A stretch of DNA of 64,000 nt from Candidatus Micrarchaeota archaeon (GTDB taxonomy: Archaea > B1Sed10-29), in the NCBI GenBank assembly GCA_964579265.1, contig CAZOFO010000001.1, positions 46,115 to 110,114 of the forward strand. Direction: 5' to 3'. Position 1 is the first letter of the stretch. Each line of letters begins with the position of its first letter. Position numbers and translations under genes: made by a program. A model generated the notes under the pieces. It had not been told where the DNA came from. It did not search any database and worked only from the letters and a program-made list of their open reading frames with translations. This document shows positions 3,288 to 60,800 of this stretch, piece by piece.

Positions 3288-3405
3288 AGCCCCGTGGTGT
3301 AGCGGTCAAGTCCTATACCATAAAAATCAATAAAAAGGTAAGGGCTACGTAAAAGCATAGCAGGCCCTGGACCTGCTGACAGCGGTTCGAATCCGCTCGG
3401 GGCTA
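3288..3405 (+). tRNA. tRNA-Gln (anticodon CUG) with a ~45-nt intron at a non-canonical position (D-arm / position 26 region)
   Basis: Acceptor AGCCCCG/CGGGGCU with A1-U72 as in archaeal tRNA-Gln. T-arm AGCGG-TTCGAAT-CCGCT. Anticodon arm GCAGG-CCCTGGA-CCTGC gives anticodon CTG. The 5' exon (GTGTAGCGGTCAAG, D-arm) is separated from the anticodon arm by an AT-rich insert (TCCTATACCATAAAAATCAATAAAAAGGTAAGGGCTACGTAAAAG). Exact exon/intron junctions are not resolved. Position 33 reads C rather than the near-universal U. Confidence 0.6.
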
Positions 3406-3406
3406 T

Positions 3407-3805
3407 CTAATTTATCTCCAAATCAAACTTTTTTAATCTGCTCAAACTCGGTCTAAGAGGATAAGTATCTCCATCAATCAATAAAACCATCTCTTCCAAA
3501 CTCTTATTAATAACTAAAGTATACTCTGAATCATCTTCTTCTCCCATAAATACCTTCTCATGCAGCTCCCCATCATGCTCTAATCCACCGTACAAAGCAG
3601 CTCTCAATATCTCACTAGCTCTATATTCATCAATAAAGATATTAAACTCTTCATCCGGAGATCTCTTACTTCCGTGTCTATTCCCCAGTCTTTCTTCCAG
3701 TATATTCTTATACCTCTTTACACCTTCTCCCGCAGGATGCGTTGTAGCTATAAATACATCCGAGTTCGAACTTCTTCCCTTTGATCTATTTTCTCCTACT
3801 ATCAT
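3407..3805 (-). CDS. hypothetical protein (132 aa)
   Basis: ORF with plausible coding composition, ending 2 nt from the tRNA-Gln 3' end. No motif recognised with confidence. Confidence 0.4.
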   Translation of the reverse strand: MIVGENRSKGRSSNSDVFIATTHPAGEGVKRYKNILEERLGNRHGSKRSPDEEFNIFIDEYRASEILRAALYGGLEHDGELHEKVFMGEEDDSEYTLVINKSLEEMVLLIDGDTYPLRPSLSRLKKFDLEIN

Positions 3806-4068
3806 CTAATCGCCCTTGGGGTGAGCCTGATTATCAAACTTCTTTAAGCCTTCAAAACTACTTAATTAAGCCGTCCTTTAAATAACTAACGAAACTATTG
3901 TAAAAAATCTACATAAATAAATAGAGTATAGATGGAAAAAATGAACAATATGTAGATAAACACCTTTTTTATAACGAAATCCGTAATTTAATAGTCACTG
4001 TAAATACATCTAACAATATTAAATAACTACAAAAATAAAGAAAAACAAAATTATTCTAGAAAATAGAA

Positions 4069-4514: not shown

Positions 4515-5147
4515 GTGACTCGAGCTATAATATATATAGACGGAAACAATTTCTACCATAATACCCAAAAAGAAGGGCTGAACCCCAACAAAATAGATTT
4601 CAGAAAACTAAGCAAACATGTCGCTCAATCATTTGATTGCTCCTGGGAAGAGACCTATTACTACAACTCCATACCCAGCATAGATACGAATAAAGAAAAA
4701 TACCATTCCCATCTAGGATTCCTCAATAGCTTGAGATACCTACCTAAATTTACGGTTAGAACCAAAAAACTTCAAAAACCGTCGGAAGAAGAGATTCAAA
4801 GGAAGAAAAAGGATTTACTGGAAAGGACCGATATCTGCTATGACTGCAGAACCGCGATAAAAGAAAAATACCAGAAACATTTAGAAGATCTCTCCAAAAA
4901 AGAAAAAGGAATAGACGTAGTGATAACCACAGATATGATCAAAGAAGCATTGAAAAACAGGTATGATACCGCGATACTGATCACAGGAGACTCACAATTT
5001 ATACCTGCACTAGAACTTATTGAAGAAGAAAATAAAAAACCAGCAACATCATTCGTTTTCCAAGGATACGCAAATGAACTCAGAGATAAATTCGACTACC
5101 ATGTACTAAAGAAAGAAGAATTAAAAGACTGCTACTACGAAGAATAA
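4515..5147 (+). CDS. NYN-domain (LabA/DUF88-like, PIN-like fold) predicted ribonuclease
   Basis: N-terminal IYIDGNNFY, central KGIDVVITTDM and AILITGDSQFIPAL match the NYN/LabA Asp-containing motifs. An insert carries a CYDC pair. GTG start. Confidence 0.6.
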   Translation: MTRAIIYIDGNNFYHNTQKEGLNPNKIDFRKLSKHVAQSFDCSWEETYYYNSIPSIDTNKEKYHSHLGFLNSLRYLPKFTVRTKKLQKPSEEEIQRKKKDLLERTDICYDCRTAIKEKYQKHLEDLSKKEKGIDVVITTDMIKEALKNRYDTAILITGDSQFIPALELIEEENKKPATSFVFQGYANELRDKFDYHVLKKEELKDCYYEE

Positions 5148-5172: not shown

Positions 5173-5292
5173 GCTCCGATAGTCTAGTGGCCAAGGATTC
5201 GAGCCTCTCGTAAACTTTTAGAAAAAGTTTAATCAAAAAATTCTAAAGTCTAGGGATAGCTCGAGACCCGGGTTCAAATCCCGGTCGGAGCA
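5173..5292 (+). tRNA. tRNA-Glu (anticodon CUC) with canonical 47-nt intron (5211-5257) after position 37
   Basis: Acceptor GCTCCGA/TCGGAGC. Anticodon stem CGAGC/GCTCG with loop CTCTCG[intron]A gives anticodon CTC. T-arm CCGGG-TTCAAAT-CCCGG. The intron contains its own hairpin (AAACTTTT..AAAAGTTT). Confidence 0.75.
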
Positions 5293-56588: not shown

Positions 56589-57401
56589 TTAATCAAACAC
56601 TTTTTTCTTTATTTTATCAATTTTCTCTTCATTCAGACCTATTAGAGGAGTGTAAATTGGCTTCACATGTTTTTCATGATCTTCTATGGCATTTTCTATA
56701 TTTTTTGTTCCTGTTACTGTTCCTTGTGGCTCGGTTGGTTTTTTCTCAGTTAGATTCCATTTTTCAAGAGTTTTATCCAGTTTTTTATTCTTTTTTTCTT
56801 TGACTGGTTCTATCATGCATCCTCTTTTCATCATCATCCAGGCGGCTAAGAGGTCTTCTTCGGTTTCTAACTTTGATTTTAATGTTCCGGCTACCCCTAG
56901 CGGTATGCCTCCTGGTCCTTTTATTTTTTCGGTGAAAAGATGTGATTTCTCTCCGTATACTTCTATATAGAGGATATGATCGGGGTTATCCAGGTCTACT
57001 TTTAGTCCTGTTTCTTTCTCCACGGTTCTTCCTATTTCTTCTTCTAGATCTTTGCTTGTGAAATCATGGTCCTTTGTTATTCTCTGCGCTCTGATAGCGA
57101 AAGTTCCTTTTTTCCAGTTTTTTACTTTTTCTTTTGCTTTTTCTCTTATTTTCTCCTTATTTGTCTCGGTTTCAACTGCTTTTGAGATAGATACTACTCC
57201 GAATATCTTTTTCAGAGTATTTAGAGCTTTTTCTCCCTGTTTTTCAGGGTAAATGTATAGTCTCAGTCTTTTTTCTTTTACTTCAGCGTTGATTCCATTT
57301 TTCTTTAGAGCTGTCCTCATGTTGTTTCCTAACTGGGATAGGAATCTTTTTTTCACTGGTTTTGACTTGAGGAATATTTCCCCGAATCTAGCTATTATCA
57401 T
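56589..57401 (-). CDS. ThiI-like THUMP-domain protein lacking the PP-loop ATP pyrophosphatase motif
   Basis: N-terminus MIIARFGEIFLKSKPVKKRF and THUMP region (NPDHILYIEVYGEKSHLFTEKIKGPGGIPLG) match ThiI. Where ThiI has SGGxDSPVAAxLMMKRG this protein has KLETEEDLLAAWMMMKRG. The protein ends after ~70 more residues (IYTPLIGLNEEKI). Confidence 0.55.
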   Translation of the reverse strand: MIIARFGEIFLKSKPVKKRFLSQLGNNMRTALKKNGINAEVKEKRLRLYIYPEKQGEKALNTLKKIFGVVSISKAVETETNKEKIREKAKEKVKNWKKGTFAIRAQRITKDHDFTSKDLEEEIGRTVEKETGLKVDLDNPDHILYIEVYGEKSHLFTEKIKGPGGIPLGVAGTLKSKLETEEDLLAAWMMMKRGCMIEPVKEKKNKKLDKTLEKWNLTEKKPTEPQGTVTGTKNIENAIEDHEKHVKPIYTPLIGLNEEKIDKIKKKVFD

Positions 57402-57588: not shown

Positions 57589-57795
57589 TTAAAGTTGTCT
57601 GGATGCTAGTCTGACGTCTTCTGCGGTTACTGTTTTTCTTCCTGCATGTCTTGCTAGTCTCATTGCTTGTGTGGATACTTCTGTTCCGACGTCTTCCAGT
57701 AGGTCTGCTAGTGCTTCTGCAGCATCTTCGGAAACTCTTTCTGCTCCAGCTTTTCTAATTATTCTGTCAACCGGTGCAACTGGTAGTTCAGCCAT
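57589..57795 (-). CDS. archaeal histone (HMf/HTa-like histone fold)
   Basis: MAELPVAPVDRIIRKAGAERVSEDAAEALADLLEDVGTEVSTQAMRLARHAGRKTVTAEDVRLASRQL closely matches archaeal histone consensus (ELPIAP..RIIK.AGAERVS.DA...L...LEE.G.EI...A..LA.HAGRKT..AEDI.LA). Confidence 0.85.
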   Translation of the reverse strand: MAELPVAPVDRIIRKAGAERVSEDAAEALADLLEDVGTEVSTQAMRLARHAGRKTVTAEDVRLASRQL

Positions 57796-57866
57796 TTGTA
57801 TTCACCCCTACCATTAATAGAGAGGAAGTTATATAAATACTTAAGGGTTTAAACCAGCTGAAAACC

Positions 57867-59480
57867 GTGTCAAATGATATGAAAGGATATATAGATAAAG
57901 AATTCATCAAAGAAGGAGAGATCGAGGATAGAGAGTACCAAAAAAACCTCGCTGAATCAGTAGTGGAAAATGGATCTTCTCTAATAGTAGCTCCAACTGC
58001 TTTAGGTAAGACGATAGTAGCTGCCCTTGTAATAGCTGAAAGACTTAAAGAGAACCCCAATGAGAAAATAGTATTTTTAGCACCCACTAAGCCTCTAGCG
58101 GAACAACATAAAGAAACCTTAGAAAGAGTAATGGATTTAGATAAAGATAAATTCATCACTCTTACAGGGAAAATCAAACCAAACCAGAGATACAAAGAGT
58201 GGAAAGAAAAACAGATTATAACAGCCACTCCTCAGACTACTAGAAACGATATACTTGAAGAAAAAGTTCCTTTAGAAGATATATCTCTAATGATATTCGA
58301 TGAATCCCATAGAGCGGTTAAAGACTACGCCTACGTGTTAGTCTCAGACGAATACCAAAATAATAGAGAAAATCCTTTTATCCTAGCTCTTACAGCCTCA
58401 CCAGGATCCAAGAAAAGTAAGATAGAAAGAGTATGTAGAAACCTAGGAATAGAAAATATAGAGATAAGGACTAAAGACGACGAAGATGTAAAACCCTATG
58501 TCCAAGACAAGGAATTCAACTGGATAAAAGTAGAATTTCCTGATGAACTCAAAGAAATTAAAAAAATACTTCAAAACTACATGGGAAAACTCTACTCCGA
58601 GATGAAAGAATACGGATTCATAAACAGCTACAATGTGAACAAAACCAGAAAGAAAAAGCTTTTAAACCTTAGAAAAAAACTCATGAACATGGATAACAAA
58701 GGACACAAAACCTATAAAGCACTCAGCAATGTCGCTGGCTTAATGAAAGTTCACCACGCGATAGAACTACTGGAAACCCAGGGAGTAGATTCAACCTTCA
58801 ACTACTTGAAAAAAATAAAGAACAAGAGCAAAAAAGAAAAAACAAAAGCAGGAGAAAGACTCATAAAAGATCCAAAAATACAAAGAGCAATAGTAAAACT
58901 ACAGGAACTAAGAGAAAAAGGAAAAGAACACCCAAAACTACCTAAAACAATAGAAAAAACCAAAGAAAAGATAAAAGAAGACAAAAAAGTATTAATATTT
59001 ACTCAGTATAGAGGAACAGTGGAAAAATTAGTCAAAGAATTGAGAAAAGAAAACATAGAAGCACAGAAATTCATAGGACAGACCAACAAAAAGAACGATG
59101 AAGGAATGAGTCAAAAACAACAGAAAAAAACTTTGGAAGAATTCAGAAAAAAAGAAAAAGCAGTATTAGTAGCAACGCAAATAGCGGAAGAAGGTCTTGA
59201 TATCCCGTCAATGGACACCGTGATATTCTACGAACCAATACCTTCCGAGATAAGGCACATACAGAGAAAAGGAAGAGCAGGAAGAAGAAAAAAAGGAGAA
59301 GTAATCATAATGATAACCAAGAATACTAGAGACGAAGCTTATTACTGGTCCAGCAAAAATAAAGAAAAGAAAATGAAGAAAATGCTTAAAAACTGGAGAG
59401 ATAATAATAAAGACCCTAAATCAAAACACGATCCGGATATAAATGAAAAGCAGAAAAAACTATCACAGTACGATAACTAA
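57867..59480 (+). CDS. hef: Hef/FANCM-type SF2 helicase (helicase moiety only)
   Basis: Motif I APTALGKT, motif II MIFDESHRAV, TASPG, and C-terminal RecA2 motifs (VLIFTQYRGTV, VATQIAEEGLDIP, QRKGRAGRR). Terminates at TAA 59478-59480. Confidence 0.75.
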   Translation: MSNDMKGYIDKEFIKEGEIEDREYQKNLAESVVENGSSLIVAPTALGKTIVAALVIAERLKENPNEKIVFLAPTKPLAEQHKETLERVMDLDKDKFITLTGKIKPNQRYKEWKEKQIITATPQTTRNDILEEKVPLEDISLMIFDESHRAVKDYAYVLVSDEYQNNRENPFILALTASPGSKKSKIERVCRNLGIENIEIRTKDDEDVKPYVQDKEFNWIKVEFPDELKEIKKILQNYMGKLYSEMKEYGFINSYNVNKTRKKKLLNLRKKLMNMDNKGHKTYKALSNVAGLMKVHHAIELLETQGVDSTFNYLKKIKNKSKKEKTKAGERLIKDPKIQRAIVKLQELREKGKEHPKLPKTIEKTKEKIKEDKKVLIFTQYRGTVEKLVKELRKENIEAQKFIGQTNKKNDEGMSQKQQKKTLEEFRKKEKAVLVATQIAEEGLDIPSMDTVIFYEPIPSEIRHIQRKGRAGRRKKGEVIIMITKNTRDEAYYWSSKNKEKKMKKMLKNWRDNNKDPKSKHDPDINEKQKKLSQYDN

Positions 59481-59498
59481 AAAAGTAGGAAAGATAAA

Positions 59499-60188
59499 AT
59501 GCAGGAAAAACTACAAACAGAAAATTTAAAAGATAGAGAAAATCCCTTAATCTATGTAGATCAAAGAGAATTCAGCTCAGGCATAGATAAAAAACTGGAA
59601 GAACTCAACGCAGAGGTAAGAAAAAAACAACTAGAAGTAGGGGACTACGTAGCTTCAAATAGAACTGCAATTGAAAGAAAAACCAAAAAAGACTTCATAA
59701 ATTCAATAATAGACAAAAGATTATTCGAACAAGCAGAAAACCTTAAGAAAAGCTTTACTCATCCTATAATCATAATAGAAGGAAATAATAATCATCTTAA
59801 GAACAGAAGAATACATCCCAACGCACTTAGAGGAGCACTAGCCTCTATCGCACTAGAATACGAAATACCTATACTTCACACTGATAACAAAAACGAAACT
59901 GCTTCTTTAATATACAGAATAGCTTACAGAGAACAGATAAAGGAAAAAAGAAACGTCAGAGTAAAAGGGAAAAAGACACCAAAAATGATTCCGGAGCAAC
60001 AACTCAACCTCGTACAGTCAATCCCAGGTATAGGTCCGGAACTAGCTGAATCTCTACTAGAAGAATTCAAGACAATAGAAGAAATTGTAAAAGCTAGCAA
60101 AACACAACTGAAAAAAGTAGAGGGAGTAGGGGAAAAGAAAGCAAAAGAGATAAGAAAATTATTGACTGAAGAGTGGAAAGATCAGTAA
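59499..60188 (+). CDS. ERCC4/XPF-type nuclease domain + tandem HhH (Hef nuclease moiety)
   Basis: ERCC4 signature region LIYVDQREFSSG...GDYVASNRTAIERKTKKDF and HhH2 (IPGIGPELAESLLEEF...VEGVGEKKAKEI). In the same reading frame as the helicase ORF, 18 nt after its stop. Confidence 0.7.
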   Translation: MQEKLQTENLKDRENPLIYVDQREFSSGIDKKLEELNAEVRKKQLEVGDYVASNRTAIERKTKKDFINSIIDKRLFEQAENLKKSFTHPIIIIEGNNNHLKNRRIHPNALRGALASIALEYEIPILHTDNKNETASLIYRIAYREQIKEKRNVRVKGKKTPKMIPEQQLNLVQSIPGIGPELAESLLEEFKTIEEIVKASKTQLKKVEGVGEKKAKEIRKLLTEEWKDQ

Positions 60189-60202
60189 AAGAAAGTTTTG
60201 CA

Positions 60203-60284
60203 CGCCGGGGAAGGGATTCGAACCCTTGAGGCCGTGAGGCCACCGGTCCTCGAAACCGGCGCATTTCCGCTCTGCCACCCCGGC
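60203..60284 (-). tRNA. tRNA-Ser (anticodon CGA), class II
   Basis: Reverse complement: GCCGGGG-TG-GCA-GAGCGGAAA-TGC-G-CCGGT-TTCGAGG-ACCGG-[GGCC-TCAC-GGCC]-TC-AAGGG-TTCGAAT-CCCTT-CCCCGGC-G. Anticodon CGA. Confidence 0.75.
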
Positions 60285-60305
60285 CTATATCTATTTTAAT
60301 TATCT

Positions 60306-60800
60306 TCATATAAATTTTAGATAATTAGCAATCATAAAAGCAAATACGAGGGGGATTCCATATTTTTCTACTATTCCGCCTGTTTTAATAGGTCCTTTGA
60401 GGTGTATTCCTCCTTCTTTTCCCAGCCATCTAATACCTTGAGGGTTCATGGAGTCTATTAAGAGATGGCTGAAGTAACCTATTATTGCTCCCATCAGGAT
60501 AGGAGAGAATACTGCTCTGCCAAGATAATTCAAAAATGTAGCTATTATTACTACCCAGGCTACCAAACCGTATACAGTATGAGTTATCCCTCTATGGCTG
60601 GTTGCTGAGGATATACCTGTAGATATCATCTTGTTGAAGGCATTCCAATCACTTATAAAGCTTTTTGGATGATCTATATCTGGTATAAGGCTAGATATAG
60701 CTGTTACTATTATCCCTGCAGCTGTTATTGGAGTGCCTATAATAGGGCTTAGTATTAGGAATAGTCCTGTTCCTATCATGAGATGCGATGCATGTAACAT
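60306..60800 (-). CDS. membrane-bound metal-dependent hydrolase (DUF457/YdjM-like)
   Basis: His-rich TM protein (HLMIGTGL..., IPDIDHP, GITHTV, FSHLLIDSMNPQGI). Confidence 0.55.
   Translation of the reverse strand: MLHASHLMIGTGLFLILSPIIGTPITAAGIIVTAISSLIPDIDHPKSFISDWNAFNKMISTGISSATSHRGITHTVYGLVAWVVIIATFLNYLGRAVFSPILMGAIIGYFSHLLIDSMNPQGIRWLGKEGGIHLKGPIKTGGIVEKYGIPLVFAFMIANYLKFI

Follow-up and report, generated by a model that had tools for sequence, protein, structure and literature searches.

Hef of P. furiosus and T. kodakarensis (PDB 1WP9, 1J22-1J25 and 1X2I) combines, in this order, an SF2 helicase with a thumb insert, a short linker, an ERCC4 nuclease domain and an HhH2 domain. Other architectures are already on record. 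Separate genes for a Hef helicase and an XPF nuclease, lying apart on the genome, are known from Thaumarchaeota, Caldiarchaeum and some euryarchaeotes (2011, PMC3082918). The Hef of T. acidophilum, described as lacking a nuclease domain, carries a C-terminal PIP-box that binds PCNA, and loss of the last 7 residues abolishes this binding (Rohleder et al. 2016, PMC4838364). Short-form crenarchaeal XPF, as in A. pernix (2BGW/2BHN) and Sulfolobus, is made as a stand-alone protein with ERCC4 and HhH2 domains and a length of about 220 aa.

The window, by which we mean the whole 64,000-nucleotide stretch of DNA analyzed here, encodes the same domains in the same order as the P. furiosus and T. kodakarensis proteins, but on two polypeptides from two adjacent genes. 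Because the covalent link of fused Hef is lost, its forced 1:1 stoichiometry and the helicase dimerization driven by the nuclease dimer are lost with it. As in the lineages with separate genes, a helicase gene and an XPF-type nuclease gene occur in one genome; in the window, however, they are still adjacent, co-oriented and only 18 nt apart. The window helicase resembles T. acidophilum Hef in being helicase-only and in ending with a single-aromatic PIP-like motif at its extreme C-terminus, where PCNA binding is putative in the window protein, whereas the nuclease is kept here as the next gene downstream. Hefs of both kinds, split and helicase-only, have been described before, and the window pair overturns nothing.

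A GTDB genome scan with alignment A2 placed the host in DPANN, within Iainarchaeota/Diapherotrites, and not among euryarchaeotes; the scan used the low-complexity pattern EKKMK[KR]M, yielded 3 true relatives, and serves taxonomy rather than a census. The preliminary description had measured the locus against the expectation that euryarchaeal Hef is normally one polypeptide. That expectation named a taxon to which the host does not belong, and split Hef is also less of a rarity than it implied. Our analysis makes it highly probable that the locus is an authentic and recent gene fission, in which Hef was cut in its short inter-domain linker to give two adjacent genes in one Iainarchaeum-like DPANN clade.

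Layout and domain content of the locus

Both genes lie on the forward strand. The mechanical call for the helicase ORF spans 57867-59480 (537 aa from GTG 57867) and ends with the stop codon TAA at 59478-59480. Judged by its homologues, the real start is almost certainly ATG 57879, giving a gene at 57879-59480 and a product of 533 aa: the protein begins MKGYIDKEF..., as do the database copy P0121, to which it is 100% identical over 533 aa, and all sister proteins. The ORF matches positions 2-524 of the 781 in the NCBIfam Hef model NF010337 with 651.8 bits, passing the cut-off of 610 alone. Pfam places DEAD/ResIII, a helical-bundle insert and Helicase_C in it, without an ERCC4 match. The SF2 motifs GKT (Walker A, motif I), DESH (motif II) and QRKGRAGR (motif VI) occur at residues 47, 145 and 466, numbered from GTG 57867, and the helical thumb insert between the RecA-like domains is recognized as PF21210 at residues 246-343 (65.3 bits). 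The P. furiosus Hef helicase structure 1WP9 is colinear with residues 15-500 (E = 6e-133). The 533-aa product stops after the helicase core and is a helicase-only protein.

After the stop codon, an A-rich intergenic spacer of 18 nt (59481-59498; AAA AGT AGG AAA GAT AAA, which would read K-S-R-K-D-K) precedes the Hef/XPF nuclease gene at 59499-60188, which encodes 229 aa from ATG 59499. The nuclease ORF matches positions 560-780 of NF010337 with 275.8 bits, which alone is below the 610-bit cut-off. Its ERCC4 domain (PF02732, 128 bits) covers residues 20-140 (nt 59556-59918) and contains the catalytic motif GDXn-ERKX3D as GDY48 and ERKTKKD59-65. The HhH2 domain follows at residues 171-227 (nt 60009-60179; Pfam HHH_5 and HHH_2), with the hairpins GIG and GVG. 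The positions of the stop, the spacer and the same-frame ATG, and the order of a helicase ORF followed by an ERCC4 and HhH2 ORF, are therefore as first described, the latter now supported by NCBIfam and Pfam.

Among PDB entries, the nuclease matches A. pernix XPF best (2BGW/2BHN, E = 3e-38), followed by the P. furiosus Hef nuclease (1J22, E = 2e-31), and it also matches the HhH2 structure 1X2I. It shares with short-form crenarchaeal XPF its size and its stand-alone ERCC4 and HhH2 architecture. However, with 169.7 bits it falls under the 300-bit cut-off of the NCBIfam model Arch_Xpf (NF040956), the Hef model scores better, and no canonical C-terminal PIP-box (Qxxhxxaa) is present in the window nuclease, which ends in ...KLLTEEWKDQ. 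The window nuclease is a product of Hef fission and not a member of the crenarchaeal XPF lineage.

The split in sister genomes and its age

A sequencing or assembly error at 59478-59480 would mean that helicase and nuclease are in truth one fused Hef gene. Two circumstances speak for it, the A-rich, low-complexity sequence of this region and the metagenome-type assembly from which the window was taken. Nevertheless, the separately assembled ENA locus L007 is 99.975% identical to the window (1 mismatch in 3,973 nt) and has the identical junction with the same TAA, and the stop is a substitution-type difference rather than a homopolymer-length error. In addition, two sister lineages of Candidatus Iainarchaeum MAGs, with helicases 76-82% identical, have this gene pair in the same syntenic surroundings, where ThiI, histone, helicase, nuclease and LPG synthase genes follow one another as in the window. 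In these sisters (L001-L005 and L011), a 539-aa helicase and a nuclease of 223-227 aa are split at the same place, so that the split recurs in at least six other assemblies or samples. We regard an error as extremely improbable.

The same sisters bear on the frame of the two genes. In the window, the ORFs share one frame (59499 - 57867 = 1632 = 3 x 544), and the single in-frame TAA between them had been presented as the main feature of the locus. It is incidental: co-oriented neighbors share a frame one third of the time, and the sister genomes, whose junctions read GAT TAA A ATG and GAA TAA A ATG, hold the nuclease in the +1 frame, starting 2 nt past the last base of the stop codon. From the conserved QY codons of the helicase to the nuclease ATG there are 27 nt in the window and 28 and 25 nt in the sisters. 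At the level of sequence, these junctions show that the ancestral arrangement of the split clade was TAA-A-ATG with the nuclease in the +1 frame, and that the shared frame seen in the window is a secondary state, the result of an earlier TAA combined with a spacer whose length differs by 1 nt. We claim only a length difference because two placements of a 1-nt indel in the A-rich spacer cost approximately equal numbers of mismatches.

Programmed recoding, either readthrough of TAA in the window or a +1 frameshift at TAA-A in the sisters, would produce a fused Hef beside the separate helicase. Readthrough in the window would indeed bring back the fused-type architecture, with KSRKDK as linker, and in the sisters a ribosome that skipped the T of GAT-TAA-A-ATG would read ...D-K-M..., as in the window. 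Against this, the frame relationship of the two genes is not conserved across the clade, and with the nuclease in the +1 frame in the sisters, neither is a fused product. At the junction, neither a slippery or re-pairing-competent P-site codon nor any downstream structure was noticed. TAA is an ordinary stop, the commonest in the genome, and ends 36 of the 61 crude genes in the window. Elsewhere, the two genes are parted by an inserted gene (L006) or fully dispersed, so separate helicase and nuclease proteins suffice in those lineages. Recoding thus has very little probability, while low-level readthrough of the TAA at 59478-59480 may occur. An alternative genetic code was ruled out by the use of TAA in these 36 genes and by the full-length, intact ORFs obtained with table 11.

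The age of the fission can be bracketed by more distant homologues. All helicase homologues at least 75% identical are helicase-only proteins of 533-539 aa, whereas the next four, 57-70% identical and encoded at the syntenic locus, are fused proteins of 741-751 aa. In the tree, the split clade is monophyletic and nested among these fused forms. The fused orthologues have a short linker; the split clade carries an additional insert here, rich in Lys and Glu, in which the stop and the ATG lie. As the next-closest syntenic orthologues are fused, the fission is recent and clade-specific and can be dated to within one family-level clade.

A recent nonsense mutation would instead leave Hef as a decaying pseudogene, or as a truncated helicase with a dead nuclease remnant. 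Several features fit such decay: the ORFs are in frame with one stop between them, the closest outgroup orthologues are fused, and the nuclease evolves faster relative to the helicase in the split clade, with a nuclease/helicase distance ratio of 1.5-2.0 compared with 1.2-1.4 among fused orthologues. However, the split is common to three lineages whose helicases are only 75-82% identical. Across these lineages, the helicase has a dN/dS of 0.07-0.10 and the nuclease one of 0.17-0.19, values that are approximate because dS between the lineages is saturated (about 1.2-1.6); in a close pair, the corresponding values are 0.087 and 0.042. All catalytic motifs are kept in both genes, including GDY...ERKxxxD and both HhH hairpins of the nuclease, and in every split lineage the nuclease starts from an ATG of its own with an SD-like element. 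By these estimates, both genes are shown to be intact and under purifying selection, and inactivation by a recent nonsense mutation is very unlikely. The comparison with sister genomes that the preliminary description had proposed therefore favors an authentic two-gene split over all of the error, inactivation and readthrough that it had also considered.

The fission point and predicted expression of the gene pair

The helicase terminates in QKKLSQYDN*, in which a PIP-box-like motif, QKKLSQY (59451-59471), stands 2 residues before the stop. It has the form Qxx[L]xx[Y] with a single aromatic residue, and its Q and K are invariant in alignment A2. Of 120 Hef homologues, 96 carry a motif of this kind in the stretch from motif VI to ERCC4, compared with 2.6% of shuffled tails, and helicase-only relatives stop 0-7 residues past it. 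By analogy with T. acidophilum Hef, we consider QKKLSQY a putative PCNA-binding peptide. The position of the cut supports the view that the PIP-like peptide is the functional end of the helicase module.

The fission very probably cut a fused ancestral Hef into a 533-aa helicase ending just past this motif and a 229-aa nuclease that starts from a separate ATG, preceded by a weak SD element. The latter is AGGA at 59487-59490, -12 to -9 from the nuclease ATG, and it is a 4-mer only. SD-like 4-mers are found at 67% of gene starts in the window, compared with 24% in the background, and AGGA is the commonest of them. No oligo-T terminator was found between the two genes, where T runs of at least five were sought, and spacers of 12-18 nt are typical of same-strand neighbors in the window. 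We infer a shared transcript for the two genes, initiated at a promoter that precedes the helicase gene. The A/T-rich TATA-like element TTATATAAATA (57829-57839, forward strand) lies in the 83 nt that separate the divergent histone and helicase genes. It is a putative archaeal promoter of the two-gene unit, and it could equally serve the histone gene. A second candidate, ATATAAAT, about 55-60 nt upstream of ATG 59499, was rejected as an internal nuclease promoter, as L001 and L004 lack it at the corresponding position of the alignment; it is regarded as a chance occurrence in AT-rich DNA.

In the sisters, translation of the nuclease would depend on coupling or re-initiation, and in the window on initiation assisted by the SD element. 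The helicase may be brought to stalled forks via PCNA by its C-terminal PIP-like peptide, as in T. acidophilum Hef. The nuclease may form a homodimer of its own, of the XPF/Hef-nuclease type, which would work on the same fork structures or associate loosely with the helicase. With the two activities on separate polypeptides, the 1:1 covalent stoichiometry of fused Hef would no longer be enforced.

Possible recurrent separation of Hef and its meaning

Nanoarchaeum equitans reportedly contains split genes, such as those for reverse gyrase and alanyl-tRNA synthetase, which Waters et al. are said to have described in 2003 and whose halves are mostly dispersed. The window pair is similar in that a multidomain protein was cut at a domain boundary to give two functional genes in a small-genome DPANN archaeon. 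In the literature searched, we did not find Hef among the reported split genes of this type in reduced DPANN genomes.

By a tblastn classification of Hef loci as fused or split, corrected for L039, we counted at least five separate fissions (the window clade, L021, L022, L006 and L039), each with its break at the end of the PIP-like motif. A possible reading, to which we lend rather less than even weight, is that Hef has been split repeatedly and independently, directly after the PIP-like peptide, and that the Iainarchaeum clade represents the earliest, still-adjacent stage of a series. As part of this same tentative reading, the series would lead from fused Hef through an adjacent split, a split with an inserted gene (L006) and dispersed genes to helicase-only genomes.

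In the window family and at the distant loci L021 and L022, Hef has a histone-fold gene beside it, an arrangement that recalls eukaryotic FANCM-MHF1/2. Within about 5 kb of Hef, histone matches were found at 0 of 80 further metagenome Hef loci (tblastn, E <= 1e-4), and a general histone-Hef linkage as a mechanism was dropped on this basis.

For annotation, the locus should be entered as two genuine genes, one for a Hef helicase subunit and one for a Hef/XPF nuclease subunit, without merging, a flag as a frameshifted pseudogene or "correction." The presence of fused (57-70% identical) and split (75-82% identical) orthologues at one syntenic locus offers a clean natural comparison for the role of the covalent link in Hef, whether in stoichiometry, in dimer-driven pairing of the helicase or in PCNA tethering. 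If selection favors the uncoupling of a PCNA-tethered translocase from the nuclease, these loci would provide a natural model for the separation of FANCM from XPF/MUS81 in eukaryotes.

The two-gene locus and its sister lineages

The Hef helicase ORF runs on the forward strand from GTG 57867 to TAA 59478-59480, and 18 nt (AAA AGT AGG AAA GAT AAA) separate this stop from ATG 59499 of the nuclease ORF, which encodes 229 aa and ends at 60188. The two frames coincide (59499 - 57867 = 1632 = 3 x 544), and the sequence coordinates bear out the preliminary description of a helicase stop followed by an in-frame nuclease start. The real helicase start is probably ATG 57879 (MKGYIDKEF...), which is also where P0121, the 533-aa database copy, and every sister protein begin.

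The helicase ORF comprises DEAD/ResIII, the helical-bundle insert PF21210 and Helicase_C, and matches positions 2-524 of the 781 in the NCBIfam Hef profile NF010337 (651.8 bits, cut-off 610); the nuclease ORF, with ERCC4 and HhH motifs, matches positions 560-780 (275.8 bits). Because the matches end at 524 and resume at 560, the break lies within the inter-domain linker. The helicase retains GKT, DESH and QRKGRAGR, and the nuclease GDY...ERKTKKD and two HhH hairpins. The best solved relative of the helicase is the P. furiosus Hef helicase (1WP9, E = 6e-133); those of the nuclease are A. pernix XPF (2BGW/2BHN, E = 3e-38), the P. furiosus Hef nuclease (1J22) and HhH2 (1X2I).

The closest relatives (nuclease 63-69% and helicase 75-82% identical) are named 'Candidatus Iainarchaeum archaeon' MAGs among GTDB representatives and come from soda-lake sediment samples; these are DPANN archaea, not Euryarchaeota. 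Six sister loci (L001-L005 and L011), whose contigs stem from six or more other samples or assemblies, each have a helicase gene of 539 aa and, after it, a nuclease gene of 223-227 aa; all share with the window the order THUMP/ThiI-like, histone, helicase, nuclease, LPG synthase. Their nuclease ATG lies 2 nt beyond the final nucleotide of the helicase TAA, in the +1 frame (GAT TAA A ATG and GAA TAA A ATG).

The preliminary description had left a choice between an authentic two-gene split, a sequencing or assembly error, a recent nonsense mutation and stop-codon readthrough. An error is contradicted by L007, a separate assembly of the same locus (ENA megahit contig, ERZ27266009), which differs from the window at 1 base in 3,973 and has an identical junction, TAA included. 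Readthrough is at odds with the +1 frame of the sister nucleases and with the ordinary use of TAA, which is found as a stop in the window more often than any other codon; because TAA ends 36 of 61 crude genes and table 11 yields intact full-length ORFs throughout, the codon is not recoded. For three diverged split lineages, dN/dS was 0.07-0.10 in the helicase and 0.17-0.19 in the nuclease (approximate values, with dS saturated at ~1.2-1.6), and for the close pair L004/L011 it was 0.087 and 0.042, respectively. These low ratios and the retained catalytic motifs argue against a pseudogene or nonsense mutation and indicate that both products are functional. With the two-gene arrangement present in sister genomes and both products constrained, the authentic split is the correct reading: the two-gene feature is real, and the in-frame TAA is incidental. 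Measured against the helicase, the nuclease evolves somewhat faster in the split clade (protein distance ratio 1.5-2.0) than among fused orthologues (1.2-1.4), a hint, from a small sample, of altered constraint after fission.

Age of the fission and expression of the genes

Every helicase match of at least 75% identity was helicase-only (533-539 aa). The next four (P0126-P0129, 57-70% identical) were fused Hefs of 741-751 aa, and more distant matches were almost all fused (Diapherotrites, Micrarchaeota, Woesearchaeota, Thermococcales). Three located fused relatives (L008, L009, L010) lie in the same gene neighbourhood as the window and are therefore orthologous loci; one of them, PWMI01000027, is also a Ca. 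Iainarchaeum MAG. In the neighbour-joining tree, the split clade was monophyletic and nested within P0126-P0129. In the protein alignment, the linker of the fused forms is short (...QKTLGKYSE-EKERPKIYVD...), and at this place the split clade has an extra Lys/Glu-rich insert holding the stop and the new Met. These sequence comparisons indicate that the fission in the window clade is recent.

Helicase identities (window/L001 82%, window/L004 76%, L001/L004 75%) place L004 outside the other two, ((window, L001), L004). Parsimony then makes the out-of-frame TAA-A-ATG the ancestral junction of the split clade, and the in-frame layout of the window a secondary change. In the window, the helicase stop lies six codons earlier and the spacer is A-rich and of low complexity; 27 nt lie between the conserved Gln-Tyr codons and the nuclease start, vs 28 and 25 nt in the two sister lineages.

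An SD-like 4-mer of AGGAGGTGATC occurred at -18 to -3 in 67% of 61 crude gene starts in the window, vs 24% background, with a G peak at -10 to -7. AGGA, more frequent in the window than any other such 4-mer, stands at -12 to -9 of the nuclease start, and sister nuclease genes have AAGGA or GTGA upstream. The window stretch between the two genes contains no run of five or more T, and spacers of 12-18 nt are typical for same-strand neighbours there. Helicase and nuclease would thus be co-transcribed, and nuclease translation may rely on SD-assisted initiation in the window and, in the sisters, on coupling of termination to reinitiation at TAA-A-ATG.

Neighbouring genes

An archaeal histone-fold gene of 66-68 aa adjoins Hef in the window (57589-57795, - strand) and in two further split loci, L021 (2613-2813) and L022 (2443-2643). 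In the window family and L021 it lies upstream of Hef in divergent orientation; in L022 it comes shortly after the nuclease gene. The association recalls eukaryotic FANCM-MHF1/2. By tblastn, none of 80 further metagenome Hef loci had a histone within ~5 kb, so the linkage is lineage-restricted, and it may be simply retained synteny. All close relatives also keep beside these genes a ThiI_fer + THUMP gene (56589-57401, - strand, 270 aa; Pfam tags on orthologous sister-locus genes), whose product is apparently without the PP-loop ATPase portion that full-length ThiI has. A tRNA-Ser(cga) gene (60203-60284, - strand) lies 15 nt past the nuclease stop and is convergent with it; the mechanical ORF overlapping this tRNA (60094-60309, - strand) is spurious. 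Rfam placed two tRNAs of 118-120 nt at 3288-3405 and 5173-5292 (+ strand), where ARAGORN reported none; they are probably intron-containing archaeal tRNAs.

A recurrent break point past a PIP-like motif

Hef helicase and XPF-type nuclease as separate genes in one genome are described by Nunoura et al. (2011, PMC3082918). Split Hef as such is already known, from Thaumarchaeota, Caldiarchaeum and some euryarchaeotes; the window split is recent, with genes still adjacent and clear fused orthologues for comparison. Within an incomplete coverage of the literature, we found no published report of split Hef in Iainarchaeota or DPANN.

The 80 further loci, an arbitrary sample classified by tblastn with L039 corrected by hand, comprised 51 fused Hefs, one adjacent split (L039), three helicase ORFs running off the contig and 25 helicases without ERCC4 in the ORF or a detectable nuclease in the available flank, although some downstream flanks are too short to exclude one. 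The adjacent two-gene state is rare, and it looks like a transitional stage from fused to dispersed genes. Stand-alone nucleases in an Aenigmarchaeota MAG and one other lineage had no adjoining helicase. In L006 (GCA_964584335.1, 1830-4669), a rhomboid protease gene is inserted between genes for a 518-aa Hef helicase and a 222-aa nuclease, an intermediate stage between adjacent and dispersed.

Short tails were found in 14 of the 25 nuclease-less helicases; adding L039, 14 of 15 short-tailed ORFs had [LIVMF]xx[FYW] at most 3 residues from the C-terminus. The remaining 11 had different C-terminal extensions. Two groups of ERCC4-less Hef-type helicases each have a conserved extension: ~150-160 aa past motif VI, ending ...AAVETAIWRL.QQGQ.YQPEPGK...L (L041, L044, L050, L062, L063, L077), and ~226-259 aa, ending ...LC.RVR.V... 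(L078, L081, L095, L106).

The window helicase ends in ...QKKLSQYDN, in which QKKLSQY matches the PIP-box consensus Qxxhxxa with a single aromatic residue; Hef and FANCM PIP-boxes have only one conserved aromatic residue (PMC4838364). According to Rohleder et al. (2016, PMC4838364), the biochemically studied T. acidophilum Hef is helicase-only by nature and contacts PCNA (Kd ~1 uM) through a PIP-box at the very end of the protein; the deltaC7 and I505R/F508S mutants no longer bind, and in fused Hefs the same motif is found where the linker begins. In 96 of 120 Hef homologues, the stretch from motif VI to ERCC4 contained Qxx[LIVM]xx[FYW], vs 2.6% of shuffled tails, and across the close family the Q and K never vary.

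All helicase-only relatives end 0-7 residues past this motif. In the window clade, with the nuclease gene adjacent, the distance is 2 (window) or 6-8 residues. P0164 (locus L022) ends in QKVLGEF, with the nuclease next after TGA TTT ATG, in frame; P0177 (L021) ends in QKKLGEFNEKKEN, with the nuclease overlapping in the +1 frame; L006 ends in QRKIGDYK before the rhomboid gene; and L039 ends in QKSIEEYGDD, with the nuclease reading on from TTG directly behind an in-frame TAG. The L021 overlap (SRR10589506 contig, 4540-4600) spans ~20-50 nt across eight A (GAAAAAAAAGAAAA); a genuine frameshift-type fission, a sequencing error in the homopolymer or a slippery site might account for it. In L039 (Ga0207714_1000658, 3700-3860), a single in-frame stop with zero spacer (TAG TTG-AAA-ATT-TTT-GCA-GAT-CAT-AGG-GAA, LKIFADHRE...) might be a nonsense mutation of very recent date, mark a nuclease gene with a TTG start, or reflect TAG recoding.

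In the neighbour-joining tree, the nearest neighbours of P0164, P0177 and the L006 helicase were fused proteins in each case. The sisters of the window clade are likewise fused; with L039 included, these lineages suggest that Hef has split at this one point on at least five independent occasions. This recurrent break point directly past the PIP-like motif is the most useful by-product of the analysis.
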